Shown here: piece after piece, positions 16,113-60,246 of the stretch | Position numbering within the stretch: the stretch's first letter is position 1 | Layout: every line of letters begins with the position of its first letter | Source of the DNA: Spirochaetaceae bacterium | GTDB taxonomy: Bacteria; Spirochaetota; Spirochaetia; DSM-2461 | NCBI GenBank assembly: GCA_965224705.1 | Contig: OZ245056.1 | Coordinates: 2,048,001-2,112,000, forward strand | Direction: 5' to 3' | Length of the DNA: 64,000 nt | Made by a program: the position numbers and the translations under genes | The notes under the pieces: model-generated | The model's database searches: none | Seen by the model: the letters and a program-made list of their open reading frames with translations, nothing else | What the model was told of the DNA's origin: nothing

Positions 16113-16123
16113 TTTTTACCTTT

Positions 16124-16242: not shown

Positions 16243-16257
16243 TTTATCTTTCAATCC

Positions 16258-16423: not shown

Positions 16424-17219
16424 AATGATTAATAACAGCTTTTATCTCCTCAGTCAACCTTCGGGCAGCCAGGGGCAAAGGTAGTCCCAGGAAGGAGGAA
16501 ACAGCGATTGGATCACCAAACTCCAATTTATATTCAAACCTGTAGTTATCGGGAATGGAGAAAAAACTATCACCTTTCCCCAGCCCTCTGGGAGAATTGA
16601 TCTCTATATGAACAGGAAGAATATCTCTGTTGTTACGAAGTGCAATCTGGGCAGCGCTTCGGTGCAGTTTTATATCGTTCTTTTTGTAATCTGTCCGCGT
16701 TCCCTCAGGAAAGAGGATCAGGTTATGCCCCTTTGCCAGAGACTCTCCACTCTGGCTAATAACTGCCTCGCCGTCAAGCAAGTTCGGAATATATAAGCGG
16801 GAGACGACAGGCATAGTAAAAGGATTCCTCCACAGGGAGGCTTTGACGATGCAGTCAGCCTGTGGAGTAAGTGCTATGAGGAATACGGCATCAAGTAGAG
16901 TTGGGTGATTGGCACAGATGATCATGCTCCGTGCCTGTGACAGATTTTCCCGCCCCTCAACCTCAAGTCGGATTAGTCCGACCGCCACCATGAAATTGGA
17001 AAAAAAACGGAAGGTATGGCTGACGAGAGAGCGAAAAGCATCATTGGATTTCCCATCGCGGCTCACAGCCAGCAGTGCCGCGGGCCCCACGAAGAGAGCA
17101 AAAAATAGTCCCCCTAACCCGAAGAAAAAAAAACTGAGAGATTTGAAAAACAGATGAACAGCGGAGCGGAAAAAGTTAATGATCACTTCTCTCCTGCACG
17201 GAAAATAGTGATCCGACAA
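16422..17219 (-). CDS. PlsC-like acyltransferase (ApeD-like)
   Basis: ANHPTLLD and FPEGTRT motifs. Confidence 0.92.
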   Translation of the reverse strand: MSDHYFPCRREVIINFFRSAVHLFFKSLSFFFFGLGGLFFALFVGPAALLAVSRDGKSNDAFRSLVSHTFRFFSNFMVAVGLIRLEVEGRENLSQARSMIICANHPTLLDAVFLIALTPQADCIVKASLWRNPFTMPVVSRLYIPNLLDGEAVISQSGESLAKGHNLILFPEGTRTDYKKNDIKLHRSAAQIALRNNRDILPVHIEINSPRGLGKGDSFFSIPDNYRFEYKLEFGDPIAVSSFLGLPLPLAARRLTEEIKAVINH

Positions 17220-22671: not shown

Positions 22672-23924
22672 TGTCAGAAAGCCTGTAAAACCCCCTTCAA
22701 CCCATCCCGTGAGTCCAATCCCATCCTAAACCTTCACATACAGCGGATCATAACGACCGGATTCCACTCCCGGATTACGCCACTCACACAGCCAGGTTTT
22801 CTTCTCTGCCGCACCCAGATTGACCCTGCTCAGAAAGGCCCTCTTCAACCAGTATTTGCTCACTGCCTTGCGAAGTTTCTTCCTGGTGATCCCGGCCTTC
22901 TCAGCATGAGTTGTGTCCTTCTTCTTCCGGGCCTCCTTCACCCGCCATGGAATCATACAGTTGTGATAGTGACGATAAAGAATGAATCGAATCATCATCG
23001 CAGCGGGAGATTTGGCAAACTTGACCGTCTCCCTGACATGATCTGAAATATCTTTCCTGATCTGACGGTCAATGTAGTTAATAGGAAACATCGAATTATC
23101 CATGGTTCTGGCCGACCTTGAAGATGTCATGACCCGGATGAAGAAGTGGAGAAAATGCTCGGTTTTCGCAAAGGACCGGGTGTATGCCCTGTGCATATCC
23201 GTGAAGAGCAGCTTATGCACAACCTTTTTCTTCATAAGAAATTGAATCAAATCTTCTGTCAGACTTCTCACCGATTTCTCAATGGCCCCGGGATCCGCCC
23301 TGCCCCTGGTCTCCAGCTTTTTTCGGATCAATTTCTGACGGGAAGTCATTCTTCCTTTCCGCCTGAGATTGGCAAACCCGGTCTCATAGATGAACTCGGA
23401 CTCACTCCCGGCAAAGATGTTGATGTGGTTGGGATAGTATTGAGAGAAGGAAAAGGACTCCAGTCCATCGGCGGCCATGGATTCCCTCATGGGGAGTTTT
23501 TTCAACAGCCGGGCATGGATTGCCATGGCGGAACGGGCCAGTCTTTCGCATCGATTCTGCACCGTATCGGAAGAAACCTCCAGGTGACGGCTGATGTCAT
23601 TCACACCGGAAGAGGTCACCAACTGCTGTAGGAGTTCCTCGTAGTCGATGACTTTTTTCGCATAGTAATCGATTGAAAAAGTCTGGGAAGAAAAGGTTCT
23701 TTTGCAGTCATTGCAGATGTATCGCTGGACTGTTCCAAATGCTTCTGTGTGGTAGGAACTGTGTATCGAAAACCAGTTTTTTTGCTTCGGGGCACTGAAA
23801 TGGATACATTTCGGGTTGGGACAGTGAGGGAATAACATGATCAAACTCCTTTATAAATTGTTTTCTTACTATGTTATAACGAGCCTGACAGGGGGGGGGT
23901 GCTACATTAACAAGCTTTCTGACA
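22672..23924. mobile_element. IS-like element bounded by family A inverted repeats
   Basis: TGTCAGAAAGCCTGTAAA ... TTAACAAGCTTTCTGACA enclosing one transposase-like ORF. Confidence 0.7.
22726..23844 (-). CDS. IS1-like transposase (Zn ribbon, HTH, putative DDE domain)
   Basis: CPNPKC...QRYICNDCKRTFS InsA-like ribbon, ISRHLEVSSDTV HTH, and ADGLE / TDMHRAY acidic motifs. Confidence 0.7.
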   Translation of the reverse strand: MIMLFPHCPNPKCIHFSAPKQKNWFSIHSSYHTEAFGTVQRYICNDCKRTFSSQTFSIDYYAKKVIDYEELLQQLVTSSGVNDISRHLEVSSDTVQNRCERLARSAMAIHARLLKKLPMRESMAADGLESFSFSQYYPNHINIFAGSESEFIYETGFANLRRKGRMTSRQKLIRKKLETRGRADPGAIEKSVRSLTEDLIQFLMKKKVVHKLLFTDMHRAYTRSFAKTEHFLHFFIRVMTSSRSARTMDNSMFPINYIDRQIRKDISDHVRETVKFAKSPAAMMIRFILYRHYHNCMIPWRVKEARKKKDTTHAEKAGITRKKLRKAVSKYWLKRAFLSRVNLGAAEKKTWLCEWRNPGVESGRYDPLYVKV

Positions 23925-23937
23925 CTACGGATTATTT

Positions 23938-26476: not shown

Positions 26477-26550
26477 CCCCGCACCACCACCCGGACTCCC
26501 TTTGACTCCGGTATCACCTGCACCGCCTGCAGCACTGGAATCTGGTGCCA
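26477..26550. repeat. Diverged 74-bp copy of the 5' part of the prophage scaffold gene (55155-55228)
   Basis: 65/74 identical by manual ungapped alignment. Confidence 0.85.
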
Positions 26551-26589
26551 ATAGAGTCAAAACCACACAAAACACAGGAGTGTTCTGGC

Positions 26590-27175: not shown

Positions 27176-27271
27176 AACTCGATCTCTTACTTCAAAGGCC
27201 GTTCGAGTAGATTTTAGTTATGAGGCAACCACATGCTTTCGAGTCGATTAGTTATCAGGCAATTCGCATCG

Positions 27272-27300
27272 TTGCATAAGACCTCTCTCCGCTGTATACT
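27272..27300 (+). promoter_or_regulatory. Sigma70-type promoter of WD40-caspase copy 1
   Basis: TTGCAT-N17-TATACT; AAGGAG RBS further downstream. Confidence 0.65.
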
Positions 27301-27372
27301 GAATGGCGCAAAATGCTTGACAGGGAGCCCACCGCCCCTGATGTTTTCCATCCCCCTTAAAGGAGACCTGCC

Positions 27373-30264
27373 ATGAAACGTTTCTTTTTGCTAGCCCTAT
27401 TGACCGCCGCCGCAGCCGCCCCCCTCCTTGCCGAAGGAGGGAGCGGCCAAACCGGCGGCCCGCCGCCATCCACCGCAGAACCCGCGACCGAGCCCCTGCT
27501 GCGGCTGAACACCCCCATGCACTTCGCCCCGGTTGAAAGCATTAGCGCCGATGCCGCCGGGAAGCTCGTCCTTACCGCCAGCCAAGACAAGACCGCCAGG
27601 CTCTGGGACGGGGAGAGCGGCGAACTGCTGCGCATCCTGCGCCCGCCCGCCGGGGAGGGGGATGAGGGCAGGCTCTACGCCTGCGCCCTCTCCGCCGACG
27701 GCAGGCTGGCCGCCGTCGGCGGATGGACAAAGGCAGGATACAGCGGCTCCGGCAACCACAACATCTACCTCTTCGACACCGCCGCCGGTGGCATGGTCCA
27801 GCGGCTCTCCGGCCTGGGCAATGTGATACTTGATCTGGAATTCCACTCAGGCGGCGCTCTGGCGGCGGCCCTAGGCGGCATAGATGGCATCCGAATCTGG
27901 CGGCCCTCCTCCGGCGGCTACCGCCTGGCCGCCAGGGACAGCGATTACGGCGATTCTTCTTACGACATCACCTTCAGCCATGACGGCAGGCTGGCCTCGG
28001 TCAGCCTTGACGGCCACATTCGGCTCTACGATGATGATTTCCAGCTAGCCGAAAAGCGCCGCGCCCAGGGGGGGAATCATCCCTATTCGGCGGACTTCTC
28101 CCCCAACGGCTCCAGGCTGGCGGTGGCCTATGCTGACTCGCCAAGGGTGGAGGTGCTGGACGGCCATGGCCTGGAACTCCTCTACCGCCCCGACATCGCC
28201 GGTGCCGATGAGCCGGGTCAGAGTATATATCAACTCGCCTTCGCCCCCGGCGGCGCCCTCTACGGCGGCGGCGTTTACCATGATTACATCGACGGCGGCT
28301 GGTGGAAACTCGTGCGCCGCTGGGAGGACGGCGGCCGGGGGGCCTACCGCGACTTCAAGGCCGCAGGCAACACCATCACGGATCTCAAGGTGCTCCGCGA
28401 CGGCTCCCTCCTGACGGCGGGGAGCCAGCCCGACTGGGGCCGCTACGGGCCCGATGGCCAGAAGATAATCTACAAGCGGGGGGAGATCTCCGATTTTAAA
28501 AACAAGGATTTTATTGAGCACTTCACCCTCAGCCGCCAGGGCGACAGGCTCTCCTTTAAGCCCCAGAGCGGAAAGGCCATGGTCTTCAGCCTTGGCGATC
28601 GCAGCCTTGCGGTCTCCGGTGAGACCTTCCATCCCTACCGCGACAGCGGGGGCGGCGTCAGCGCAGCCGACTGGGAGAACTCCTACACCCCCCGCGTCAA
28701 CGGACGGGAGGCCGACTTTCTCGATCAATACGAAAGGAACCGCAGCGTGGATGTGGGGGACGACGGCACCATGCTCTTTGGTGCGGAATGGTCCCTCTAC
28801 GCCCTGGAGCCGTCCGGCAAAACACGGTGGCGGACCGATGTGCCGGGGGTGGCCTGGGCGGTCAAAATCTCCGGCGATGGGCGCGTCGCGGTATCGGCCC
28901 ACAACGGCGGGGAGATCCGCTGGCACCGCATGGCCGACGGGGAGCATCTGCTCTCCCTCTTTGCCCACCCCGACGGCCGCCGCTGGCTGGCCTGGAGTCC
29001 CCTGGGCTACTACGATGCCAGCCCCGGCGCCGACAATCTGGCCGGCTGGCACCTCAACCAGGGGGCCGACGATGCCGCCGCCTTCTATCCCCTTTCCCGC
29101 TTCGCCAGCCGCTTCTACCGGCCCGAGGTGGTGGCCGGCATCATCCGTCACGCCGATGTGGAAACGGCCCTGGCCGAAGCGGGCAAAGGCGGACGCAAAA
29201 TCCTGCCCGATGCGGACATCGCCCAGCTGCTGCCGCCGGAAATCGTCATCATCTCGCCCTCCAACGGCCAGGAGGTCTCCTCCGGCCGGATAAGGGTGCG
29301 CTACCGGGTGAGCGCCCCCCCGGGCGGGGAGGTTACCGCCGTGAGGGCCTTTGTCGATGGCCGTCCAGCGGGGGAGCGCGGCCTTCGACCTGTCGGCACC
29401 GCCGGTGAGATAGAGGTTCCCGTGCCCGAGCGGGACTGCCGAATATCCCTGGTGGCGGAGAACCGCCATGCCGCCAGCGAGCCGGCGGTGGTGAGCGTCC
29501 GCTGGCGGGGAGAGGAGGCCTTTGTCGTCAAGCCCAAACTCTACGTGCTGGCGGTGGGTGTCAGCGGCTACCGGGACGCCGATCTGCGGCTGGACTACGC
29601 CGCCAAGGACGCCCGCGACTTTGTGGACAGCCTTAAGGCCCAGGACGGCGGCCTCTACCGGGGGGTGACGGCGAGGCTGCTCACCGACGGCCAGGCCACT
29701 AAGGGGGATATACTGGACGGCCTGGACTGGATACTGCGGGAGACCACCCAGAAGGACGTGGCCATGGTGTTTCTCGCCGGTCACGGCGTGAACGACGACT
29801 ACGGCGACTACTACTTTTTGCCCCAGGACACCGATCGAGAGCGTCTCAAGCGCACCGGCGTTCCCTACTCCGAGATTCGCAGCACGGTGTCCAACATCGC
29901 CGGCAAGGCCCTGTTCTTCATCGACTCCTGTCACAGCGGCAACGTGCTGGGAACGCGGCGCGGTTCCCTGGACATCAACGGCATCATCAATCAGCTTGCC
30001 AGTGCCGAGAACGGAGTGGTGGTGTTCGCCTCCTCGAGCGGCCGCCAGTTCAGCCTTGAGGACCCTGCCTGGAACAACGGCGCCTTCACCAAGGCCCTGG
30101 TGGAGGGCATCAGGGGAGGGGCGGCCTACCGCGGCGACAGGATTACCGTGAACATGCTGGACCTCTACATATCCGAGCGGGTTAAGGAACTCACCGGAGG
30201 CCGCCAAACTCCCACCACTGCCAGGCCCAGCACGGTTCCTGATTTTCCTATTGCGTTGAAGTAG
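27373..30264 (+). CDS. Secreted WD40-repeat protein with an Ig-like linker and a C-terminal caspase (peptidase C14) domain, copy 1
   Basis: Signal peptide, TASQDKTARLWD-type WD40 repeats, and intact catalytic motifs FLAGHG and FIDSCHSG. Confidence 0.92.
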   Translation: MKRFFLLALLTAAAAAPLLAEGGSGQTGGPPPSTAEPATEPLLRLNTPMHFAPVESISADAAGKLVLTASQDKTARLWDGESGELLRILRPPAGEGDEGRLYACALSADGRLAAVGGWTKAGYSGSGNHNIYLFDTAAGGMVQRLSGLGNVILDLEFHSGGALAAALGGIDGIRIWRPSSGGYRLAARDSDYGDSSYDITFSHDGRLASVSLDGHIRLYDDDFQLAEKRRAQGGNHPYSADFSPNGSRLAVAYADSPRVEVLDGHGLELLYRPDIAGADEPGQSIYQLAFAPGGALYGGGVYHDYIDGGWWKLVRRWEDGGRGAYRDFKAAGNTITDLKVLRDGSLLTAGSQPDWGRYGPDGQKIIYKRGEISDFKNKDFIEHFTLSRQGDRLSFKPQSGKAMVFSLGDRSLAVSGETFHPYRDSGGGVSAADWENSYTPRVNGREADFLDQYERNRSVDVGDDGTMLFGAEWSLYALEPSGKTRWRTDVPGVAWAVKISGDGRVAVSAHNGGEIRWHRMADGEHLLSLFAHPDGRRWLAWSPLGYYDASPGADNLAGWHLNQGADDAAAFYPLSRFASRFYRPEVVAGIIRHADVETALAEAGKGGRKILPDADIAQLLPPEIVIISPSNGQEVSSGRIRVRYRVSAPPGGEVTAVRAFVDGRPAGERGLRPVGTAGEIEVPVPERDCRISLVAENRHAASEPAVVSVRWRGEEAFVVKPKLYVLAVGVSGYRDADLRLDYAAKDARDFVDSLKAQDGGLYRGVTARLLTDGQATKGDILDGLDWILRETTQKDVAMVFLAGHGVNDDYGDYYFLPQDTDRERLKRTGVPYSEIRSTVSNIAGKALFFIDSCHSGNVLGTRRGSLDINGIINQLASAENGVVVFASSSGRQFSLEDPAWNNGAFTKALVEGIRGGAAYRGDRITVNMLDLYISERVKELTGGRQTPTTARPSTVPDFPIALK

Positions 30265-30875
30265 GGGGGTAGGGGGAATAAGGTCTTTTTTTTGCTTAGT
30301 CTTTTCTCTCCGGCCGCTTGCTCCATGTCGGCTCTTCTCTTCGCTGTCGCGCCTGATACAATGCTTGTCCTGAGCTTTCGCGAAGACAGGCTGCGGCCAG
30401 CTGCGCTTTCCCATCGCTGCCCCCCAATCATAGTTGTTCTAATAGGATCTTCAGGAAGACTAACACCCGAAACCCTAAAAAAACCACAATATTCTTTTTT
30501 CTTATTTTTGAACTCATAATCCTTGAAAACAATTATCTGATTCAGCTCTTTCTCCTATTGATTTTCTCCCAATTTACCCATCAATTCTTTTCTGAAGCTA
30601 TCAGGTTTTCCACTGAGTTCTCCCAAAATTAGCGCATCTCCCCCATTCGATTCAAAAAGTAGAAACAAGACTTCTTAATTTGAACATATCGGCTATCAAT
30701 TGAGACATTGTTATCGTTCTATTGGCATTGTGACCACCTGAAGTCTCTCTGTATGAAGGCTAAAAAATGAACCCTTGAAACCTTTCAAACTCTCTCTCGA
30801 CGCCGTCAAACCAAGGTTGAACAGAGTCAGTTAAGTGCCGCGTTCGATACACACGCCCAACAAACCACTCATCCT

Positions 30876-31916: not shown

Positions 31917-32037
31917 CGCTCCACCTCATTCTCCAAATTCGGGGTATGTTTGGGCTGAAGGTTATTGTTGTCAGTAGACCCCTGCGAGCTGACAGCACTG
32001 TTTATATTTTTATCATTGATTTTTTCCCAATTTATCC

Positions 32038-32129
32038 GAGCTAATTCAAAAACTTTCTATAAGTATCAGTCGGAGAAGGAATGTCGCTACCCCAAACAAA
32101 TTCTTATTGAGAATGAGGGTTTTGTCAAG
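32038..32129. repeat. Dispersed repeat family B, copy 2
   Basis: Aligns with 19083-19188. Confidence 0.7.
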
Positions 32130-32261
32130 ATTTCTACACAAAAAGCCATGTTTCTATGTTTCGGACATAGTTCCCCCAAAAAACAGGAATCTCGGCCCAT
32201 TCCTTCTATGCCGCTTCTTTGTTCAGAGTTGGATCTTTTTATCCCCTATTTCTCTGCACAC

Positions 32262-32402
32262 CTCTGCGCCCTCTGCGGTTTACAATTCCCTTCCTTAATC
32301 TTCACAGCCTTATGCATGGTTTTTAACCGCAGAGGACGCAGAGAACGCAGAGTGTTCACGGTAATTATTGACCAATGCGTACCTCTGCGATCTCTGAGGT
32401 TT
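32262..32402. repeat. Cluster of CTCTGCG/CGCAGAG 9-bp-period inverted repeats
   Basis: CTCTGCGCCCTCTGCGGTT, AACCGCAGAGGACGCAGAGAACGCAGAG and CTCTGCGATCTCTGAGGTT. Confidence 0.65.
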
Positions 32403-32537
32403 AGTGCCGCTTTTAGGAGATTCCAAATTTGTTGAGACACTATATAAAAATTCCCTATCGATCACCCCAGAATCAGTGTCTTTATTTTTTTGGGATAGAA
32501 TTAGATGCGATTGTCCTGATGATGATTGGATTCATCG

Positions 32538-32566
32538 TTGCATAAGACCTCTCTCCGCTGTATACT
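32538..32566 (+). promoter_or_regulatory. Sigma70-type promoter of WD40-caspase copy 2
   Basis: Identical TTGCAT-N17-TATACT. Confidence 0.65.
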
Positions 32567-32638
32567 GAATGGCGCAAAATGCTTGACAGGGAGCCCACCG
32601 CCCCTGATGTTTTTCATCCCCCTTAAAGGAGACCTGCC

Positions 32639-35581
32639 ATGAAACGTTTCTTTTCGCTGGCCCTATTGATCGCCGCCGCAGCCGCCCCCCTCCTTGCCGG
32701 AGGCCAGCCCGAAGACAGCCGCGGCGGCCAAACCACCGACCAAACCACCGGCCAGCCCGCATCGCCCCCCACCGACCCCCCGCCGCCCACCGCAAAGCCC
32801 TCGACCGAACCCCTGCTGCGGCTGAACACCCCCATGCACTTCGCCATGGTTAGAAGGATCAGCGCCGATGCCGCCGGGAAGCTCGTCCTTACCGCCAGCG
32901 ACGACAAGACCGCCAGGCTCTGGGACGGGGAGAGCGGCGAACTGCTGCGCATCCTCCGGCCGCCCGCCGGGGAGGGCCACGAGGGCAAACTCTACGCCTG
33001 CGCCCTCTCCGCCGACGGAGGGTTGGCCGCCGTCGGCGGATGGACAAAGGCGGGATACAGCGGCTCCGGCAACCACAACATCTACCTCTTCGACACCGCC
33101 ACCGGCGGCATGGTCCAGCGGCTCTCCGGCCTGGGCAATGTGATTAATGATCTGGAATTCCACTCAGGCGGCGCCCTGGCGGCGGCCCTGGGCGGCACAG
33201 GGGGCATCCGCGTCTGGCGGCCCTCCTCCGGCGGCTACCGCCTGGCCGCCAGGGACAACGATTACGGCGATTCTTCCTACGGCATCGCCTTCAGCCATGA
33301 CGGCAGGCTGGCCTCGGTCAGCTTCGACGGCCACATCCGGCTCTACGATGATGATTTCCAGCTAATCGGAAAGCGCCGCGCTCAAGGGGGGAACCGGCCC
33401 TATTCGGCAGCCTTCTCCCCCGACGGCTCCAGGCTGGCGGTGGGCTATAATGACTCGCCAAGGGTGGAGGTACTGGACGGCCATGGCCTTGAACTCCTCT
33501 ACCGCCCCGACATCGCCGGTGCCGATGAGCCGGGTCAGAGTATATATCAACTCGCCTTCGGCCCCGGCGGCGCCCTCTACGGCGGCGGTTTTTACCGCGA
33601 TTACATCGACGGCGGCTGGTGGCACCTCGTGCGCCGCTGGGAGGACGGCGGCCGGGGGGCCTACCGCGATTTCAAGGCCGCAGACAACACCATCATGGAC
33701 CTCAAGGTGCTTCCCGACGGCTCCCTCCTGGCGGCGGGGAGCCAGCCCGACTGGGGCCGCTACGGGCCCGATGGCCAGAAGATAATCTACAAGCGGGGGG
33801 AGATCGCCGGTTTTATAAACAAGGATCGCTTTGAGTACTTCACCCTCAGCCGCCGGGGCGACAGGCTCTCCTTTAAGCCCCAGGGCGGAAAGGCCATGGT
33901 CTTCAGCCTTGCCGACCGCAGCCTTGCGGCCTCCGCGGAGACCTTCCAGCCCTACCGCGACAGCGGGGGCGGCGTCAGCACAGCCGACTGGGAGAACTCC
34001 TATGTCCCCCGCATCAACGGACGGGAGGCCGATTTTCTCGATCAATACGAGATGAACCGCAGCGTGGATGTGGGGGACGGCGGCACCATGCTTTTTGGTG
34101 CGAGTTGGTCCCTCTACGCCCTGGAGCCCTCCGGCGAAACACGGTGGCGGGCCGCCGTGCCGGGGGCGGCCTGGGCGGTCAAAATCTCCGGCGACGGGCG
34201 CGTCGCGGTATCGGCCCACGACGGCGGGGAGATCCGCTGGCACCGCATGGCCGACGGGGAGCATCTGCTCTCCCTCTTTGCCCACCCCGACGGCAGGCGC
34301 TGGCTGGCCTGGAGCCCCCTGGGCTACTACGATGCCAGCCCCGGCGCCGACAATCTGGCCGGCTGGCATCTCAACCGAGGGGCCGACGATGCCGCCGCCT
34401 TCTATCCCCTTTCCCGTTTCGCCAGCCGCTTCTACCGGCCCGAGGTAGTGGCCGGCATCATCCGTCACGCCGATGTGGAAACGGCCCTGGCCGAAGCAGG
34501 CAAAGGCGGACGCAAAATCCTGCCCGATGCGGACATCGCCCAGCTGCTGCCGCCGGAAATCGTCATCATCTCGCCCTCCAACGGCCAGGAAGTCTCCTCC
34601 GGCCGGATAAGGGTGCGCTACCGGGTGAGCGCCCCCCCGGGCGGAGAGGTTACCGCCGTGAGGGCCTTTGTCGATGGCCGTCCGGCGGGGGAGCGCGGCC
34701 TTCGTCCCGTCGGCACCGCCGGTGAGATAGAGGTTCCCGTGCCCGAGCGGGACTGCCGGATATCCCTGGTGGCGGAGAACCGCCATGCCGCCAGCGAGCC
34801 GGCGGTGGTGAGCGTCCGCTGGCGGGGAGAGGAGGCCTTTGTTGTCAAGCCCAGGCTCTACGTGCTGGCGGTGGGTGTCAGCGGCTACCGGGACGCCGAT
34901 CTGCGGCTGGGATACGCCGCCAAGGATGCCCGCGACTTTGTGGACAGCCTTAAGTCCCAGGACGGCGGCCTCTACCGGAGGGTGACGGCGAGGCTGCTCA
35001 CCGATGCCCAGGCCACTAAGGGGGATATACTGGACGGCCTGGACTGGATACTGCGGGAGACCACCCAGAAGGACGTGGCCATGGTGTTTCTCGCCGGTCA
35101 CGGCGTGAACGACGACTACGGCGACTATTACTTTTTGCCCCAGGACACCGACCGGGAACGTCTCAAGCGCACCGGTGTTCCCTACTCAGAGATTCGCAGC
35201 ACGGTGTCCAACATCGCCGGCAAGGCCCTGTTCTTCATCGACTCCTGTCACAGCGGCAACGTGCTGGGAACGCGGCGCGGTTCCCTGGACATCAACGGCA
35301 TCATCAATCAGCTTGCCAGTGCCGAGAACGGAGTGGTGGTGTTCGCCTCCTCAAGCGGCCGCCAGTTCAGCCTGGAAGACCCCGCCTGGAACAACGGCGC
35401 CTTCACCAAGGCCCTGGTGGAGGGCATCAGGGGAGGGGCGGCCTACCGCGGCGACAAGATTACCGTGAACATGCTGGACCTCTACATATCCGAGCGGGTC
35501 AAGGAACTCACCGGAGGCCGCCAAACTCCCACCACTGCCAAGCCCAGCACGGTTCCCGATTTTCCCATTGCGTTGAAGTAG
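32639..35581 (+). CDS. Secreted WD40-caspase (peptidase C14) protein, copy 2
   Basis: Paralogue of 27373-30264 with the same motifs and an intact His/Cys dyad. Confidence 0.92.
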   Translation: MKRFFSLALLIAAAAAPLLAGGQPEDSRGGQTTDQTTGQPASPPTDPPPPTAKPSTEPLLRLNTPMHFAMVRRISADAAGKLVLTASDDKTARLWDGESGELLRILRPPAGEGHEGKLYACALSADGGLAAVGGWTKAGYSGSGNHNIYLFDTATGGMVQRLSGLGNVINDLEFHSGGALAAALGGTGGIRVWRPSSGGYRLAARDNDYGDSSYGIAFSHDGRLASVSFDGHIRLYDDDFQLIGKRRAQGGNRPYSAAFSPDGSRLAVGYNDSPRVEVLDGHGLELLYRPDIAGADEPGQSIYQLAFGPGGALYGGGFYRDYIDGGWWHLVRRWEDGGRGAYRDFKAADNTIMDLKVLPDGSLLAAGSQPDWGRYGPDGQKIIYKRGEIAGFINKDRFEYFTLSRRGDRLSFKPQGGKAMVFSLADRSLAASAETFQPYRDSGGGVSTADWENSYVPRINGREADFLDQYEMNRSVDVGDGGTMLFGASWSLYALEPSGETRWRAAVPGAAWAVKISGDGRVAVSAHDGGEIRWHRMADGEHLLSLFAHPDGRRWLAWSPLGYYDASPGADNLAGWHLNRGADDAAAFYPLSRFASRFYRPEVVAGIIRHADVETALAEAGKGGRKILPDADIAQLLPPEIVIISPSNGQEVSSGRIRVRYRVSAPPGGEVTAVRAFVDGRPAGERGLRPVGTAGEIEVPVPERDCRISLVAENRHAASEPAVVSVRWRGEEAFVVKPRLYVLAVGVSGYRDADLRLGYAAKDARDFVDSLKSQDGGLYRRVTARLLTDAQATKGDILDGLDWILRETTQKDVAMVFLAGHGVNDDYGDYYFLPQDTDRERLKRTGVPYSEIRSTVSNIAGKALFFIDSCHSGNVLGTRRGSLDINGIINQLASAENGVVVFASSSGRQFSLEDPAWNNGAFTKALVEGIRGGAAYRGDKITVNMLDLYISERVKELTGGRQTPTTAKPSTVPDFPIALK

Positions 35582-35644
35582 GGGGGGCGGGGGGGAATAA
35601 GGCCTTTTTGCCTGGTTCCCTGTCAGAATGTGTGGGTGATCTAA

Positions 35645-40759: not shown

Positions 40760-40784
40760 GGACAAAACTAGATAAATTATGTCA
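40760..40784 (-). promoter_or_regulatory. Candidate Mor-box late promoter (lysis operon)
   Basis: TGACATAATT-TATCT-AGTTTTGTCC, 13 nt, CATGAT. Confidence 0.7.
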
Positions 40785-40796
40785 TTTTTTACAAAC

Positions 40797-43700
40797 TTAC
40801 TGCTTGTTCCTATTCTCCCAGATGTCCAGTTCCCTGCTGGTGAGGATGGTACCGCCACCACCCACAGCCACCCACAGCCCATTGGCGTAGCGAGCATCAC
40901 GGAGGTACGCTGTCGTCCCACTGGTCCGTGCCGTCCAGCTGGTGCCATCGGTGCTGGTCAAAAGGGTGCCGTAGGAACCCACAACCACCCACAGGCCATT
41001 GCCGTAGCGAGCTTCATAGAGGTACGCCTCCGTCCCGCTGTCTCGAACCGTCCAGGTGATTCCATCAGGGCTGGTCAGGAGGGTACCGGAGTAACCCGCA
41101 ACCACCCACAGCCCATTGGCGTGGCGCACTTCATAGAGGTTCTGCGCCGTCCCGCTAACCCGCACCGTCCAGGTGATGCCATCAGGGCTGGTCAGGATGG
41201 TACCGGAGTAACCCACAATCACCCACAGCCCATTGGCGTGGCGCGCATCCCAAAGGGTCACCGTTGTCCCGCTGGCCCGCGCCGTCCAGCTGGTGCCATC
41301 GGTGCTGGTCAATATGGTGCCGGAGGAACCCACAGCCACCCACAGCCCATTGGCGTAGCGCGCATCCAAAAGGGTCACCGTTGTCCCGCTAACCCGTTTC
41401 GTCCAGCTGATGCCATCGGTACTGGTCAGGAGGGTACCGGAGTCACCGTTTATTACCCACAGCCCATTGGCGTAGCGCGCATCCAAAAGGGTCACCGTCG
41501 TCCCGCTGGCCCGCGCCGTCCAGCTGGTGCCATCGGTGCTGGTCAATATGGTGCCGGAGTCACCGTTTATTACCCACAGCCCATTGGCGTAGCGAGCATC
41601 ACGGAGGTACGCCGTCGTCCCGCTGACCCGTGCCGTCCATGTGATACCATCGGTGCTGGTCAATATGGTACCGGAGTCACCCACGGCCACCCACAGCCCA
41701 TTGCCGTAGCGCACCTCATAGAGATTCTCAATCGTCAACGGCGTAACAGTCTCCCACTCAACCCCCGCCGGGACCTTGCAGCCGCCCAGCGCAGTCAGAG
41801 ACCCCGCAAGAACCAGACTCATAATCCCGTTTTTCAGAGTGCTCTTCATTTGCATCGCTCCTCCACTAAAGATACCCAATTCCAACGCGTCCGTCTCCCC
41901 CTCTGTTATTGGCCATACGCGAAACTCCCAGTCGCCGTGCAAAACGGAGAGGCCTCGCTCCTGGAGCTGTAGGCCGGTCTGGGCACTCTGGGGGGCGTAG
42001 GGTAATTCCCCCTCTTCGATTGTCGTCACACTGGTGAGAATGGTACCGCCACTACCCACAACCACCCAGAGGCCATTGCCGTGGTACGCATCACGGAGGA
42101 CCTGTGTCGTCCCGCTGGCCCTTGCTGTCCAACTGGTGCCATCATTGCTGGTCAGGATGGTACCGTAGTAACCCACAGCCACCCACAGGCCATCGGCGTA
42201 GAGCGCATCCCAAAGGGTCACCGTTGTCCCGCTGGCCCGCGCCGTCCAGCTGGTACCATCAACACTGGTCAATATGGTGCCGGAGGAACCCACAGCCACC
42301 CACAGCCCATTGGCGTAGCGCGCATCCAAAAGGGTCACCGTTGTCCCGCTGGCCCGCGCCGTCCAGCTGGTACCATCAACACTGGTCAATATGGTGCCGG
42401 AGGAACCCACAGCCACCCACAGCCCATTGGCGTAGCGCGCATCCAAAAGGGTCACCGTTGTCCCGCTGGCCCGCGCCGTCCAGCTGGTACCATCAACACT
42501 GGTCAATATGGTGCCGGAGTAACCCACAATCACCCACAGCCCATTGGCGTAGCGCGCATCCAAAAGGGTCACCGTTGTCCCGCTGGCCCGCGCCGTCCAG
42601 CTGGTACCATCAACACTGGTCAATATGGTGCCGGAGGCACCGGTTACCACCCACAGGCCATCGGCATAGCGCACATCCCAAAGGGTCACCGTTGTCCCGC
42701 TGGCCCGCTGCGTCCAGTCAATCCCATCGGTACTGGTCAGGAGGGTACCGGAGTCACCGTTTATTACCCACAGCCCATTGGCGTAGCGCGCATCCAAAAG
42801 GGTCACCGTCGTCCCGCTGGCCCGCGCCGTCCAGCTGGTGCCATCGGTGCTGGTCAATATGGTGCCGGAGTCACCGTTTATTACCCACAGCCCATTGGCG
42901 TAGCGAGCATCACGGAGGTACGCCGTCGTCCCACTGGTCCGTGCCGTCCAGCTGGTGCCATCAAAGGGCAGGGATATCGGCCCGATCCTGCGCTCACCGA
43001 TCATAAGCGCATCGGCCAGGCCAAGGACGCCCCGACCGACGGCCACCCCGTCATCCAGTGCCATGGAATATCTTTTTGTGCCGTCCTGGTACAACTCCAG
43101 AGCCAGATCGTCGCCCCCCAACCGCATGAGCGGCTCCCAGGAACCCCCGCCCCACCTGGAGACCAACAGCTCATCATTATCCAGGTGGACAATCCTATCC
43201 CCCACCTCAGGCGCCGTCACCGATCCAGCGCCCTTGTAAGAGGTGTATCCAGTTGCCTGGCCGACAGTGAGATTATCCTTGATATTCGCGATAAGCGCGT
43301 TCAGCACGGAGACTTCGATTGTATTGGCCGTAACAGCCCCGGTGGCGATCGACCCCGCCTCCACCAGAGTCGTGACTGCTGAAGCCGAAGACATGTCGGA
43401 GACAAAATTATCAGGAGCCGCACGAGCGATGCGGCGCACCCTATAACAAAGAGTCCTGCCCACAGGATCGCCGTCTTCATCGACAGCAGGAAGAATACCT
43501 GGATGAACCAGCGTATCGCCCTGCCATGCCGTCCACTCATCCGCCGCACCCCTCCAGTCCAGACCGTCCATACGCAGAGAATGCCAGGCCGCGTTGTCAT
43601 CTGACACCTGAAGCTCATAGTGCAGGAAATTTGTCAGGTTTTGTTGTCGATTCATTCGCAAAATGATAGAGCCGTATGCCCCCTCCGCCGTCAGTTCAAC

Positions 43701-46058
43701 AGAATCCGGGATGATGGTTGCCTTTGGCACACCTTCCGGGGCATACTCCCAGCCGTCTGCCAGTTCCCTGTAAGTTGGCCTTTGCGCCGCTGATTTCAAT
43801 GCATTCCTCTTCACTGAGGCCATTTGCCGGTCTACAGGATAGGCAGGAGCTGTTATTGTCTCTTTGGGCAGAATAATACCGGGATCCCAGGGAGGGATTT
43901 CCCCGGAATCTGCATCAAAAATCTCCTGGGCATAAGGAACAAGAACAAGCGTTCCTGCATTGTCACTCTGCTGACTGATCGAGACACACTGCACCTTGAG
44001 TGCCTCCTTGCCCCGCTTGCCAATGATATATTGATTGCCTACTTCAATTTTACCAGCCTCTACCGGCGACTCGAAAGCAGCCTCATAGACAACACCGGAT
44101 TCGGCCAGGCCTGTAACTGGAAAAATCTGAACCCCATCTGATTCACCATTCATGCGAACCATAATCGAGTAACTTTCATCAGATTCCAGATAAACCGGCT
44201 CATCCAGACTCACCCCGGTAGAGTTCCCCCCCTCATCTGCGGCGATGCTCTTCACCTTTCCGCTGGACAGCCCATACAGAAACATATCGCTGGCCAGATA
44301 CCCAACGGCACCGGGGAAGGCCGAAAGATGCTCAAAATCCTGAGGAACCGTTATCTGCATAGTGCGCCGGTTGAGTTTGGCCAGCTCGAAAGCCCCGATC
44401 TTCATCGCCTGCCCAGTGCCGGTGATGCCGATCAAGCTCATTTCATCCGTGTCTTTTCCCGGCTCAACGTCAAAGCTGATGACACCATCGCCATCAATCC
44501 CAATTGTCCGGGACACCTCCTGATACCCGCTGTCTCTGTCAATCCATTTTATCGTGAGCGAATCTGGAACATCTTTGAACTTTCGGGTTAAACTCATGCC
44601 GCCTCTGGTGTTACGGGGAGTCAGTTGAAAATCTATTGACCCACTCTTTTCTTCAGTTCTTACTCCAAAGTGACCGTTATATGCATACAGAACTCCGCGG
44701 CCTGCGGCGGCAATCATCGAAGATATCTGCTCGATGGTATAATCGCCAGACACAACCGCATCGAAAGAGAACCCTTTTGCCGTACAAAACACATGCCAGG
44801 CTTCAAAGTCTTCCCAGATTATTTTACTATCTGGAACGGGATTCTTCCCCACATGCTCATCCGTCAAAAGATAAAGCATGGCGGATGCGGGATTCCGGGT
44901 CGGTCTCTTCAGCCAGCTTATCGGCCCAGTCCCGGAACCGCTATAGTCACGGCAGCTCAAACGGGCCATGACGTTGAACTTATCAACAATGCCGCTGAGC
45001 TGACTCGTCGATTTAATCTTGAGTGACACCATTTTGCATTCAGAAAGGAACCCATCAGATACCGGATCTGTATTGCCGTCAAGATCCTGAATACGGCACG
45101 TTAGAACATCCCAGTATGCAGTATCCAGATAATGCACAGCGTCTCTTCCTTCGGTTATCCGCCGCACCGTGACAGTATAAGAAGCCGGGGACAAAGAAAC
45201 CGAAAAGCGTCTGCGGACATAATCGGCATTCGCCGAAATAGAGTAATTATTATCACTGTTGTAGCCAGTTTCTGCTGAGATTTTAATATTGAACAGGACA
45301 GACGCACTGCCCTCATTGGCATCCTCGTCGTAATGGCGGAGACCCGCCGGGAACGTTATCCCTATCTCGATCTCTGTTGTCCCATCCGGCGTTGTGTGCA
45401 CAGCAGACTCGCCGGACTGCAGCTCAGAACCTATCGTCAGCTCACTGACAAGGCGGGGATACTGGAGCGTTCCGTCTGATAGGACAGCCTCATAATGAGA
45501 AAGAGGGTTGTCGCCGATCTCTGGATCGCTGTATTGCACATCCGAATACCCGAGACAGAAGAGCTGATGGTACCACTGCTCATCAGACTGGTAACTCGTG
45601 TAAGGCGTGCCGCATAAATCAGGTACGTGATAGTGCTCGCCAAAGATCAGAGGTACCCGGCCATTGGGCCTGTAGCGGTTGTTTCCTCCCCGGATGCTGG
45701 CCGCCGGATTGGGACGGTCAATCTCGCTAAACTTCTGTGCCTGCTTCTGCGCCCGTTCCGCTTCCCGCCGAAGCTCCTCGTTTTTTGCAATAGCAACACC
45801 GGCGACAACGCCAGATCCCACGGCAAGGATGCCGCCTATAATGGCAACGGCCGCAACGACGGCAGGAGCAGCTGGAACCGACACAATGGTAACAGATACC
45901 GCTGAGTCCGGGATGTCCTCGATCTTTCCGCAGGGCTTGCCATCGATAAAAATCCTATCCCCTTCCTGTGTGCGAATTTCATCTCTTTTCTGCCAGGCGA
46001 CACAGCCCATCGTCCCGGGAACGTCGATATACCTAACCTTTAACACAGTAGACCCCAT
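40797..46058 (-). CDS. Tail tip/host-specificity protein (lambda J-like) with two C-terminal 8x39-aa beta-propeller repeat blocks
   Basis: VPLIFG..H..PD, TRNPA and other J-like motifs; repeats DGTSWTARxSGTTxxLxDARYANGLWVxxGxSGTILTS. Confidence 0.9.
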   Translation of the reverse strand: MGSTVLKVRYIDVPGTMGCVAWQKRDEIRTQEGDRIFIDGKPCGKIEDIPDSAVSVTIVSVPAAPAVVAAVAIIGGILAVGSGVVAGVAIAKNEELRREAERAQKQAQKFSEIDRPNPAASIRGGNNRYRPNGRVPLIFGEHYHVPDLCGTPYTSYQSDEQWYHQLFCLGYSDVQYSDPEIGDNPLSHYEAVLSDGTLQYPRLVSELTIGSELQSGESAVHTTPDGTTEIEIGITFPAGLRHYDEDANEGSASVLFNIKISAETGYNSDNNYSISANADYVRRRFSVSLSPASYTVTVRRITEGRDAVHYLDTAYWDVLTCRIQDLDGNTDPVSDGFLSECKMVSLKIKSTSQLSGIVDKFNVMARLSCRDYSGSGTGPISWLKRPTRNPASAMLYLLTDEHVGKNPVPDSKIIWEDFEAWHVFCTAKGFSFDAVVSGDYTIEQISSMIAAAGRGVLYAYNGHFGVRTEEKSGSIDFQLTPRNTRGGMSLTRKFKDVPDSLTIKWIDRDSGYQEVSRTIGIDGDGVISFDVEPGKDTDEMSLIGITGTGQAMKIGAFELAKLNRRTMQITVPQDFEHLSAFPGAVGYLASDMFLYGLSSGKVKSIAADEGGNSTGVSLDEPVYLESDESYSIMVRMNGESDGVQIFPVTGLAESGVVYEAAFESPVEAGKIEVGNQYIIGKRGKEALKVQCVSISQQSDNAGTLVLVPYAQEIFDADSGEIPPWDPGIILPKETITAPAYPVDRQMASVKRNALKSAAQRPTYRELADGWEYAPEGVPKATIIPDSVELTAEGAYGSIILRMNRQQNLTNFLHYELQVSDDNAAWHSLRMDGLDWRGAADEWTAWQGDTLVHPGILPAVDEDGDPVGRTLCYRVRRIARAAPDNFVSDMSSASAVTTLVEAGSIATGAVTANTIEVSVLNALIANIKDNLTVGQATGYTSYKGAGSVTAPEVGDRIVHLDNDELLVSRWGGGSWEPLMRLGGDDLALELYQDGTKRYSMALDDGVAVGRGVLGLADALMIGERRIGPISLPFDGTSWTARTSGTTAYLRDARYANGLWVINGDSGTILTSTDGTSWTARASGTTVTLLDARYANGLWVINGDSGTLLTSTDGIDWTQRASGTTVTLWDVRYADGLWVVTGASGTILTSVDGTSWTARASGTTVTLLDARYANGLWVIVGYSGTILTSVDGTSWTARASGTTVTLLDARYANGLWVAVGSSGTILTSVDGTSWTARASGTTVTLLDARYANGLWVAVGSSGTILTSVDGTSWTARASGTTVTLWDALYADGLWVAVGYYGTILTSNDGTSWTARASGTTQVLRDAYHGNGLWVVVGSGGTILTSVTTIEEGELPYAPQSAQTGLQLQERGLSVLHGDWEFRVWPITEGETDALELGIFSGGAMQMKSTLKNGIMSLVLAGSLTALGGCKVPAGVEWETVTPLTIENLYEVRYGNGLWVAVGDSGTILTSTDGITWTARVSGTTAYLRDARYANGLWVINGDSGTILTSTDGTSWTARASGTTVTLLDARYANGLWVINGDSGTLLTSTDGISWTKRVSGTTVTLLDARYANGLWVAVGSSGTILTSTDGTSWTARASGTTVTLWDARHANGLWVIVGYSGTILTSPDGITWTVRVSGTAQNLYEVRHANGLWVVAGYSGTLLTSPDGITWTVRDSGTEAYLYEARYGNGLWVVVGSYGTLLTSTDGTSWTARTSGTTAYLRDARYANGLWVAVGGGGTILTSRELDIWENRNKQ
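40829..41764 (-). repeat. 117-bp tandem repeat block B (8 units)
   Basis: 39-aa period, seen directly. Confidence 0.9.
42029..42964 (-). repeat. 117-bp tandem repeat block A (8 units)
   Basis: 39-aa period; units 5 and 6 are identical. Confidence 0.9.
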
Positions 46059-54545: not shown

Positions 54546-55244
54546 TTAGATACCCATAGTCGCTTGCGCGGCAAGATTCAAAGAGTCCTCTATCGTTTTC
54601 CCAAGCTTAACTTCACCTGCGGCACCCGACGCCGATACAGGCGCAGAACCCTTCACAGCATCCCTGGATGCTTTTTCATACCCGCGCTTCTCTGCTTCAG
54701 CAATCAACTCCATCAACCTCTTGCCCTTCTTAAATATTTCATCCTGATCCTTTCCAGCCAGAATGAACCTGTCTTCTTCCTTGATTCCACAGCGTTCAGC
54801 CGCTAAACCCACACATTCACCGAGGAACTTTTCCATACGCTCAGATTCTTCACGCTCCTGTTTTTCAGAACGTTCCGACTCTTCCGCCTTCTTGCGCTCC
54901 TCTTCAGACATATGCTGTTTACGCAATTCCGCCATTTCTTTTTCGATGGCGGATACCCGCCTGGCCTGCCCGTCGCGGTCGGCCTTGAGCTTTTTCAGCT
55001 CCTCTTCCTTTGACTCAAGCTGTTTAGCCAATTCGTCAGGTTTTGGAGCATTGAGCAGCTTCTCTTGCTCTTTGAGCTTTACAAGCTCTTCCTCTTTCGC
55101 CTTCAGCTGTGCTTTCAGTTCCTCCGGTTTCAGCCCTTCGCCGCCACCCTGAGGCCCCGCATTACCATCTGGGCTCCCGTTGTCTCCGGTGTCACCTGCA
55201 CCGCCTGCAGCACCGGAATCTGGTGCCAGCAAAATTTTGAACAT
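54546..55244 (-). CDS. Capsid scaffolding protein
   Basis: Gly-rich leader, Lys/Glu coiled coil, directly upstream of the capsid gene. Confidence 0.8.
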   Translation of the reverse strand: MFKILLAPDSGAAGGAGDTGDNGSPDGNAGPQGGGEGLKPEELKAQLKAKEEELVKLKEQEKLLNAPKPDELAKQLESKEEELKKLKADRDGQARRVSAIEKEMAELRKQHMSEEERKKAEESERSEKQEREESERMEKFLGECVGLAAERCGIKEEDRFILAGKDQDEIFKKGKRLMELIAEAEKRGYEKASRDAVKGSAPVSASGAAGEVKLGKTIEDSLNLAAQATMGI

Positions 55245-55311
55245 TTCTCCTCCCCTGGTTTGCTTAAAAGCACACCCCAGTTGATTTTTTAGAGGGTAGA
55301 AGGATTGCTAT

Positions 55312-55336
55312 GGACAAAACTAGATAAGTTTTGTCA
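55312..55336 (-). promoter_or_regulatory. Candidate Mor-box late promoter (scaffold/capsid operon)
   Basis: TGACAAAACT-TATCT-AGTTTTGTCC, 13 nt, TACCCT. Confidence 0.72.
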
Positions 55337-55352
55337 TTTTGTTAAAATCTGC

Positions 55353-55381
55353 TTGACGTTCTTCCAGAAGGAGGATATATT
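55353..55381 (+). promoter_or_regulatory. Near-consensus sigma70 promoter firing against the late operon
   Basis: TTGACG-N17-TATATT. Confidence 0.7.
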
Positions 55382-55385
55382 CAAA

Positions 55386-55491
55386 GAGGATCGGGGGCTA
55401 CGAAGCTCTTCGGAGTGGATAACCCCGGGCCACCCGTCTTTCAAGCAGGTGCAAGGATTGTGAGCAATTTTCCACATCCACCTTGCACCTG
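55386..55491 (+). ncRNA. Candidate structured small RNA
   Basis: Begins about 5 nt after the -10. Long irregular hairpin capped by c(UUCG)g, then an 11-bp stem CAGGTGCAAGG/CCTTGCACCTG. Confidence 0.5.
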
Positions 55492-55588
55492 GATAATAGC
55501 AGAAATTGAAATATCTCTTAAGGTTTATCGAATCATTGCGTTCAGGCTTACTTGTAATGCCGTGCCGAAAAGGACTTTTCCAGAATCC

Positions 55589-56968
55589 CTATCTTAGAAT
55601 TTCTGTCCTGCTTTTTTTCCAAAGAATATCTTTATTCATAATTACCACCACTTCGTTGATATTTCCTTTTATTTTAACCCTACCGCGAATTGCCCTATCA
55701 ATAATCTCTGAAGGAACTCTGGCCGACATAACTAAAACAACTTTGTTAGCCTGATGCCCAGCCTTTCGGAGATTCCTGCTGATAGAACCATAAGTTCCAG
55801 ATTGATTGGTTTTGAACTCCCATAATTCACCGTCGATAAGCGCATCAGCTGATTTAACACCTTTTTCCATTGACCTTTCCAAAAGCTGCACTCTATACCC
55901 ATTATCCGCCAGGATTTTGGCTGTTTTTAGATTTTGTGCATCTTCCGGTTCCTCGCGGTCACTGTCCTTACGAATCCAACCGCCTGTCTTACTTTTGTAA
56001 ACAAAATTACCTGGCAGTGTCCGGCCAGTGCCAACACTCTTATACCACTTTCCATAGGATATCCAGGGCCGCTTCCCATCACCCCGCACATACCGCATTT
56101 TAGGAGGGTACCCAGGGATTTGAGCCCGCAATCTACAGCGGCACTGGATATCAAAGCTGGCTACACCTGACTGTAACGGGGCCGCAACTTTCCCAACGGC
56201 GGTATCAAAAAAGCCATCCTCGCCGCGCCTTTGTCCGTCTAATGCTCCATGCTCGGGTCTGGTGCGCTTATCTAGAGCTGCATCCCAGATATATTCAAGT
56301 TCAATTCCAAGGGATTCCGCCTTACCATAGACCACCTGCTGCCCTTCCACTGCCGCTCGATGACCTTCTGTCCGTGCGATCCTCATTGAGGCATATGCTG
56401 CCCCTTTTTTTGTGTATTGATTATTATCATCAAATCCAAGCACCGCGCTTATTCGCTTGCTCATCTTGTTGTAAGACTCCCCGCGCACAAGGGACAAGGT
56501 TATTTCATTGCGCACCTTATTGACCTTAACCGCCCTATCCGTTGCTAAAGCTTTAGAGTCAGCAAGTTTTGAAAGGGGAAAAGTTACGACAGAATCAACG
56601 GCATCACCAGGGACCCTGCCCCAATCGAATGCAAACCCTGCGTCTTGATCAATCGCCCAAGCGTGACGATAGGACGAATCCTTGAAAACAGTTATTGTCT
56701 GTTTCTCAATATAAGTATCAACATTCTTCAAGTACTTCCCGAGCGTTTGCTTTACGTTTTTTTCAAGCGCCTGTAAGCGCTTGTAACGGTTCATTTCTGT
56801 CCAGTAGAGTTTTCCATCCTTTGCATATTTACGGTATAGGCCAGCAAGGTCCTGCTGTATTGATTCAAGCGCAACTTTATACGACTTAACAATCTCCTGT
56901 TCCGTCTCGTCAATACGTTTAAGGAGGTCTCCCTGAATATCTTTATATAATTCGTCAAAGAGTTTCAT
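55589..56968 (-). CDS. MuF/SPP1 gp7-like minor head protein with a C-terminal CdiA-C-like PD-(D/E)XK nuclease domain
   Basis: RIARTE, W.A.LDKRTRPEH.ALDG and IQCRC MuF motifs; tip KSADALIDGELWEFKT..I.RNLRKA.HQA. Start placed at the ATGA overlap with the portal stop. Confidence 0.85.
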   Translation of the reverse strand: MKLFDELYKDIQGDLLKRIDETEQEIVKSYKVALESIQQDLAGLYRKYAKDGKLYWTEMNRYKRLQALEKNVKQTLGKYLKNVDTYIEKQTITVFKDSSYRHAWAIDQDAGFAFDWGRVPGDAVDSVVTFPLSKLADSKALATDRAVKVNKVRNEITLSLVRGESYNKMSKRISAVLGFDDNNQYTKKGAAYASMRIARTEGHRAAVEGQQVVYGKAESLGIELEYIWDAALDKRTRPEHGALDGQRRGEDGFFDTAVGKVAAPLQSGVASFDIQCRCRLRAQIPGYPPKMRYVRGDGKRPWISYGKWYKSVGTGRTLPGNFVYKSKTGGWIRKDSDREEPEDAQNLKTAKILADNGYRVQLLERSMEKGVKSADALIDGELWEFKTNQSGTYGSISRNLRKAGHQANKVVLVMSARVPSEIIDRAIRGRVKIKGNINEVVVIMNKDILWKKSRTEILR

Positions 56969-59950: not shown

Positions 59951-59975
59951 TGACAAATCTAATTAAGATTTGTCA
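59951..59975 (-). promoter_or_regulatory. Candidate Mor-box late promoter (packaging operon)
   Basis: Perfect TGACAAATCT-TAATT-AGATTTGTCA, 13 nt, TACAGT with TGn extension. Confidence 0.75.
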
Positions 59976-60246
59976 TTTTTTTCACAACCCTACGGATGGT
60001 TCTTGTTGATAGGTGGAATCTTGATGCGATAATTTTATACGCGTTTTCGGAGAGCACATTATTATAGAGTAGATGATTGTATGCCTTGAGAATATCCTTA
60101 TTCCGCCATTCGTACAGCCTGGACCTCGGTATGTAAATTGATCGTCCGCCAAAAATCTCAATAAAATCTCTGTACTTTTCTTCTCCGAGCAATCGCTTGA
60201 TTTCGGCTTCATCAGGATCGAATATATTTTCATTTTTGGCGTGCAT
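59959..60246 (-). CDS. Mor/C-family transcription activator
   Basis: LGEE..FIEIFGGRSIYIP..RNKDI and C-terminal HTH IASRFHLSTRTIRRVV. Confidence 0.88.
   Translation of the reverse strand: MHAKNENIFDPDEAEIKRLLGEEKYRDFIEIFGGRSIYIPRSRLYEWRNKDILKAYNHLLYNNVLSENAYKIIASRFHLSTRTIRRVVKKMTNLN

Follow-up and report, generated by a model that had tools for sequence, protein, structure and literature searches.

MuF-nuclease locus of the prophage

The window (the whole stretch of 64,000 nucleotides that was analysed) carries on its minus strand the late operon of a prophage, which comprises mor, small and large terminase, portal, MuF, scaffold, capsid and tail genes. The genes and domains at the locus of interest are as follows.

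55589..56968, minus strand: MuF minor head protein with a C-terminal CdiA_C nuclease, 459 aa, between the portal and scaffold genes
56129..56521, minus strand: Phage_Mu_F domain (PF04233), 58.4 bits
55631..55855, minus strand: CdiA_C (PF18451), the PD-(D/E)XK nuclease core, 34.8 bits against a cut-off of 26.6
54546..55244, minus strand: probable scaffold gene, on the grounds of its location and coiled-coil composition (no Pfam family over its cut-off)

The MuF protein does end in a nuclease domain, as the preliminary description had it: Phage_Mu_F and CdiA_C both scored above their Pfam cut-offs. The protein thus has the build of a MuF toxin, i.e. a MuF domain with a C-terminal toxin domain, encoded in the head module. 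The CdiA_C catalytic residues D, E, K and Q are conserved in 76, 72, 75 and 77 of 77 aligned relatives, respectively, and D, E and K of the PD-(D/E)XK core were all found in the window's domain. The structure of this domain was predicted with a pLDDT of 94, and the best fold match of the model was 4G6V (CdiA-CT 1026b; Z 13.4, rmsd 3.0, 119 aligned), with the next row at 7.5. The CdiA_C family profile also matched 4G6V (E 1.7e-9). According to the available text of PMC9086364, CdiA-CT 1026b cuts tRNA-Ala in its acceptor stem, and a protein that binds the active site inhibits it. By analogy, the CdiA_C domain of the window would be a toxic RNase, most likely a tRNase.

A protein search with the domain only returned seven candidates, none of them significant, a search for the locus among viral contigs and a plasmid search gave no match, and CdiA_C was not found in the 37 same-family genomes searched. 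PADLOC matched one of 77 family members, weakly, to an unrelated system. A near-identical allele (55361-56100, with one differing letter and one gap) was present on a DNA contig from a second study; altogether, the allele occurs on DNA contigs of two studies, one of which may have supplied the window itself. None of the eight sequencing runs listed was an RNA run, which speaks neither for nor against the RNA. A lone piece of the scaffold gene 5' end is found outside the prophage head module (window 26477-26555).

Gap downstream of the MuF gene

The 344-bp gap 3' of the MuF gene contains no same-strand ORF of at least 60 aa in the ORF listing, as originally described, and only a 47-codon frame; the small downstream immunity ORF that characterizes MuF toxins is missing from the window locus. 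Four features were recognized in the gap.

55334-55477, minus strand: 47-codon frame, starting within the MITE fragment; in-frame stop in the paralogous locus L001
55353..55381, plus strand: convergent sigma70-type promoter, TTGACG-17-TATATT, 10/12; identical hexamers in L001, enriched in the family
55386..55437, plus strand: candidate small RNA core, an interrupted hairpin of about 50 nt; class known from two sequences
55436..55588, no strand: decayed fragment of a 262-bp MITE-like repeat, aligning to the right part of the repeat, its right end abutting the nuclease stop codon

A 47-aa peptide as antitoxin was rejected, the frame being judged spurious in view of the stop that breaks it in L001. 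The near-consensus promoter reported on the opposite strand was recovered, with 10/12 positions matching, as the best of five sites within 2.6 kb. Since shuffled versions of these 2.6 kb contained 2.9 +/- 2.1 promoter-like sites, the window promoter is weak by itself, and its weight derives from the comparison within the family (see below).

In the RNA core, the outer stem is formed by pairing of 55391-55396 with 55423-55428 and the inner one by pairing of 55405-55408 with 55413-55416 around a UUCG loop, the two being separated by an internal loop. The UUCG-capped hairpin noted earlier is thus present and gains support from its paralogous copy, although its folding alone is no better than that of shuffled sequences (z -0.34 and -0.21). 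The core matched neither of the two covariance models built for RNA classes A and C, and an Rfam search of the window returned four weak matches (E 0.95 or worse), none of them relevant. The pattern of the window RNA had no match in viral contigs and six in metagenomes, none adjoining a CdiA_C gene and all apparently due to chance; hence neither set yielded a third member of this class. The RNA starts with a G-run resembling that of host tRNA-Ala, yet the pairing register differs, and we regard mimicry of this tRNA as a weak idea.

The MITE-like repeat has terminal inverted repeats, is represented by 40 matching pieces in a genome of the same genus (G012) and has further copies in the genome studied here. 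Two structures that had been counted with the RNA fall within its decayed fragment and are missing from L001. One is the 11-bp stem at 55446-55491, which is real (z -4.36) but belongs to the MITE rather than to the conserved RNA and was discarded as a part of the antitoxin; the other, the pairing near the toxin stop, did not stand out in folding (z -0.44). We read the decayed MITE as having taken the place of a terminator, which is retained at the corresponding position of L001. If the window terminator was lost by MITE insertion and deletion, the 3' end of the RNA is uncertain; the core is intact in spite of this event.

Other repetitive sequences were seen as well. Short REP- or MITE-like repeats at window positions 16120-16430 and 32030-32520 have more than 100 matches genome-wide, and a 1255-bp element (window 22672-23926), probably an insertion sequence, has at least six other full copies. 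Two 3-kb genes, 94% identical, form a tandem pair (window 27267-30290 and 32533-35609), and a tandem duplication of about 2.6 kb with a methylase-like ORF and two other ORFs lies at G000:C1:2117134-2122015.

Paralogous locus in the same genome

The same genome contains a second CdiA_C locus, L001 (L001:1459-2836, i.e. G000:C1:1040494-1041871). MuF and CdiA_C are separate ORFs there, with a 17-bp overlap, in a small prophage remnant among host genes; its neighbours are presumably AAA-ATPase-like genes on one side and a CRISPR-cas-like gene cluster on the other. The CdiA_C ORF encodes 135 aa with 34% identity to the window's domain. Downstream of CdiA_C we found a promoter as in the window, the core hairpin, a terminator, and a scaffold gene as in the window. 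The T-run of the terminator meets the CdiA_C stop codon, so the RNA overlaps coding sequence by only a few bases.

All ten base pairs of the core (10/10) are kept between window and L001. Five of them differ in sequence, two by changes in both partners, and the internal loop is unchanged. Based on a pair of sequences, the test of these pairs does not reach significance (127 of 500 shuffles). The two RNAs are the sole known members of their class, come from one genome and share recent ancestry.

Late-activator boxes

A Mor-type box lies close to the promoter of the RNA, and similar boxes occur elsewhere in the prophage.

55313..55335, no strand: Mor-type inverted-repeat box, with a -10-like hexamer 14 nt on, minus strand (55293-55298), toward the scaffold gene
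59952..59974, no strand: second late box, preceding the gene of the small terminase
40761..40783, no strand: third late box, after the tail-fibre gene
59959..60246, minus strand: Mor-family activator gene (PF08765, 32.4 bits)

Allowing up to two mismatches, the box has five matches genome-wide, three in this prophage and one at L001, and each of these four precedes a -10-like hexamer on the minus strand by 14 nt. Dyad boxes recurring ahead of late genes at constant spacing, along with a mor gene, are as expected of Mor/C-type late promoters. From the repetition of the box and its spacing to the minus-strand -10 hexamer, the box in the gap can be read as the late-promoter box of the scaffold gene. 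The box beside the RNA promoter is therefore real, although it lies 17 bp from the -35 hexamer and not 16 bp as given before. Switching-off of the RNA by the late activator, which had been suggested as well, is unsupported, as the box faces the scaffold promoter. The juxtaposition of box and RNA promoter was seen only at two related loci of this genome. The tail-fibre gene (window 40797-46058) contains many tandem repeats, and beyond the window there is a second, partial copy of its repeat domain (G000:C1:2114654-2116585).

Promoters and RNA classes beside CdiA_C genes

Loci were gathered by family, alignment and pattern searches, resulting in 211 loci, 193 of which had a CdiA_C match. The latter formed 140 clusters at 85% identity; 41 were dropped owing to short flanks or long tails, leaving 99 scorable clusters. 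The family was seen in Actinomycetota, Bacillota, Saccharimonadota, Elusimicrobiota, Pseudomonadota and the phylum of the genome studied here.

A promoter (score at least 10, either strand, at the gene 3' end) was present in 63 of 99 CdiA_C clusters, compared with 9 of 62 other ORFs taken from these loci as controls and a genome background of 138 of 1818 ORF ends. Many of the 36 clusters below the threshold are GC-rich. The promoter was convergent in 21 of 24 own-phylum loci (presumably spirochaetal; 23 from genomes, one viral), while the other 75 loci had it convergent in four cases and on the strand of the gene in 37. By a loose test, the -35 hexamer is often located within the last codons of the gene (41 of these 75 loci). 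In stand-alone CdiA_C genes (L069-L146), the DNA encoding a recurring C-terminal 'IDIK' can be read as a -35 box, and the end of the peptide may thus be constrained by the RNA promoter.

The promoter is followed by an interrupted hairpin that is 40-110 nt long and carries a T-run. Altogether, 81 of the 99 clusters were put in classes, namely 28 in A, 18 in B, 14 in C (these three assigned by eye) and 21 in a convergent group defined by promoter score. In class A (25 sequences), both partners have changed in 14 of 16 pairs, which none of 500 shuffles reached, and pairing amounts to 86% as against 40-51% in slid controls; class C (10 sequences) shows such two-sided changes in 8 of its 19 pairs; as both structures were drawn from the tested sequences themselves, these tests lean in their favour. 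The class B alignment has just four consensus pairs. Covariation, which the preliminary description had proposed to look for at homologous loci, was thus found in classes A and C. The own-phylum RNA group has a median folding z of -1.89. Inner hairpins differ in sequence inside classes.

The class A model found the RNA in many held-out loci. In L073, the class A RNA is located upstream of the gene, and in L109 it occurs in three copies. A reciprocal search with the class C DNA pattern gave 41 viral matches, of which eight had a CdiA_C stop codon 12-28 nt upstream. These eight were exactly those with the highest covariance model scores (at least 25 bits, the others scoring 24.1 or lower), and four of them were outside the training set. 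RNA class tracks protein clade across phyla, as judged from a quick protein tree (137 columns, 42 of 96 forks open). No relevant Rfam match was obtained for 40 loci. At the level of the family, the toxin gene is thus accompanied by a structured non-coding RNA, an arrangement shared with type III toxin-antitoxin systems; the window copy is represented by two sequences. The same-strand RNAs end as a hairpin with a T-run and could also be plain terminators.

RNA and coupled ORFs

Of the 18 clusters that received no class, five have a coupled ORF of at least 100 aa. Four such loci (L067, L077, L138 and L203) form one clade, in which the coupled downstream ORFs are homologous in two groups, one of them in common with gene 10 of phage MalagasyRose. 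In this ORF-bearing clade, the class C model, the sole model run there, detected no RNA; long genes hide the upstream DNA in these loci. Gene 10 of MalagasyRose (L343:1449-1760), annotated as scaffolding protein, is coupled to a MuF-CdiA_C gene and homologous to the ORF of L203. From these relationships, we regard gene 10 as a probable immunity protein and gene 11 as the likely true scaffold.

As a control, 69 MuF loci of the own phylum without CdiA_C were collected, of which 55 were scored, six dropped as too short and eight removed as duplicates. Convergent promoters accompanied 2 of 13 MuF proteins with short extensions. Among the 42 with long extensions, 12 had a promoter without an ORF, 26 an ORF without a promoter, one both and three neither; the ORF cut of 55 aa was picked after viewing this table, and Fisher p-values calculated from it overstate, as the loci are kin. 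Nine of 40 scanned extensions matched PBECR2, PBECR3 or LPD3 (five below cut-off); all nine lacked an ORF and seven had a convergent promoter. Individual loci with PBECR2, PBECR3, LPD3 or unknown extensions (L273, L277, L278, L281, L285, L323 and L342) have no immunity ORF but a convergent promoter and an RNA-like stretch, and L287, L293, L306 and L316 are alike; none of these RNA-like stretches had an Rfam match.

The proposal that an RNA replaces the immunity protein thus receives comparative support, the RNA being family-wide, covarying and undetected, by the class C model, beside the conserved ORF, with the 11-bp stem excluded from it. RNA and coupled ORF appear to replace each other, which points to a role in inhibition or immunity rather than to that of a cofactor.

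Possible roles of the RNA

From these comparisons, we consider it fairly probable that the small RNA is a trans-acting, type III-like antitoxin that binds the CdiA_C nuclease. Transcription of the RNA would start at a host sigma70 promoter, both in the lysogen and at an early stage of infection, and the RNA would bind and block the nuclease in trans, as RNAs of type III systems do. As a fusion to MuF, the nuclease would be packed into the virion and reach the next cell together with the DNA. An RNA antidote requires transcription only, and could therefore be produced while the toxin damages translation.

The two modes of action put forward earlier for such an RNA fared less well. Antisense action is disfavoured, since the RNA can lie on either strand and once lies upstream of the gene. 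A tRNA decoy held in one of the four RNA groups: an unpaired NCC(A/G) follows the helix in 8 of 10 class C RNAs (shuffle mean 1.9), but in none of 25 class A RNAs, 2 of 20 of class B and 4 of 23 remaining ones, mostly convergent RNAs. Mimicry of tRNA ends was therefore rejected for the family as a whole.

Alternatively, the RNA could bind the nuclease without inhibiting it, serving a ribonucleoprotein as cofactor, guide or sensor, a possibility also left open for the DUF3800-associated RNAs. Its co-occurrence with the nuclease, the covariation and the match to protein clades would fit any dedicated partner, and the variable sequence of the inner hairpins within classes is compatible with this as well. 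Nevertheless, we regard such a role as unlikely, given that RNA and coupled downstream ORF seem to replace each other and that the closest relative, CdiA-CT 1026b, acts without an RNA partner as far as the available text of PMC9086364 describes it.

Control in cis, similar to type I systems, appears improbable too. Here, the convergent transcript would damp the MuF message through antisense pairing or polymerase collision, and same-strand units would be terminators or attenuators. The convergent arrangement of nearly all own-phylum loci agrees with this, as does the possibility that transcription of the window RNA, without its terminator, reads through into the toxin gene. On the other hand, the own-strand promoters of about half of the other loci, the upstream RNA of L073 and the triple copy of L109 are difficult to reconcile with control in cis; at L001, the terminator at the stop codon restricts the overlap to a few coding bases, and conserved internal loops are left unexplained by antisense action.

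We find it quite improbable that the window unit is a decaying relic, i.e. that the RNA of the family is real while this copy was disabled by the MITE or its domain is non-toxic. The terminator has been lost, the end of the MITE touches the stop codon so that the last residues may be altered, and the paralogous locus is itself a small remnant; but the promoter, the core pairs and the catalytic residues are all intact, and almost the same allele is carried by the contig from the second study. Finally, a chance promoter followed by ordinary hairpins, with no dedicated RNA, is very improbable: promoter-like sites are common at ORF ends and the window hairpin alone gives no folding signal, but promoter enrichment, covariation and the reciprocal search all speak against chance.

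Returning to the RNA as an antitoxin, a broader picture can be sketched, which we offer as a tentative possibility. Phage polymorphic toxins might have two interchangeable modes of immunity, protein or RNA, with RNase warheads (CdiA_C and apparently PBECR2, PBECR3 and LPD3, both MuF-borne and stand-alone) using many unrelated RNA antitoxins of 40-110 nt, and the virion-delivered tRNase might act as an entry trap. The toxin would arrive with the DNA, and silencing it would require that the phage genome persist long enough for the RNA to be transcribed; a cell destroying the incoming DNA would consequently stay poisoned, while lysogens would be pre-immune. To our knowledge, it is generally taken for granted that immunity to polymorphic toxins requires a protein, and families of RNA antitoxins are few. 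If correct, the proposal would add a widespread RNA antitoxin family with a new toxin fold and explain MuF toxins without an immunity gene. With a protein of 130 aa and an RNA of 50 nt, the system is small, which makes the claim cheap to test.

Comparison with known systems

ToxIN, CptIN and TenpIN are type III systems which we take to share with the locus the plan of a nuclease gene with an adjacent neutralizing RNA, on prophages. CdiA_C differs in its toxin fold and is sometimes fused to a virion protein, and its RNA is mostly single-copy, downstream, provided with its own promoter, located on either strand and divided among many unrelated classes. Membership in ToxIN, CptIN, TenpIN or AbiF was rejected, as Pfam gave CdiA_C only and Rfam no relevant match. 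AbiF/RCd22 resembles the locus in having a nuclease gene and an adjacent structured RNA, proposed in the available text to neutralize by direct binding, on prophages (PMC12373285).

The MuF polymorphic toxins (Jamet 2017, PMC5576092), as far as the available text describes them, are likewise MuF-nuclease fusions in the head module of temperate-type phages; the window has a candidate promoter-driven RNA where their immunity gene sits. With CdiA-CT/CdiI 1026b (4G6V; PMC9086364, available text), the locus has the Pfam family, fold and PD-(D/E)XK core in common. That toxin is delivered in a contact-dependent manner and has a protein inhibitor, whereas CdiA_C is here MuF-fused or stand-alone and accompanied by no CdiI-like gene.

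No description of an RNA partner of CdiA_C or MuF toxins was found in the literature searched, with most subscription papers and some supplements outside it, nor by term look-up in the available text of PMC5512222, PMC10690425 and the preprints 10.64898/2026.08.28.747851 and 10.64898/2026.09.22.753630. The supplement of Fremin and Bhatt 2021 (PMC8040213) lists three candidate structured RNAs with CdiA_C within 5 kb, namely HMP2_5706 (17 CdiA_C per 24 instances), HMP2_938 (3 per 12) and HMP2_1267 (18 per 193). They are given uninterpreted there, 'CdiA' being absent from the main text, and are possible counterparts of the classes described here.

The closest published pattern, in the available text, is that of the DUF3800, drum and skipping-rope motifs (Weinberg 2017, PMC5737381), in which many dissimilar RNAs, often with terminators, also accompany a protein family on either side and strand. 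The protein family is a different one, function was left open there, and the RNAs reported here are shorter. If our reading of the CdiA_C RNAs is right, it would suggest a function for such orphan RNA sets, for example the DUF3800 motifs.
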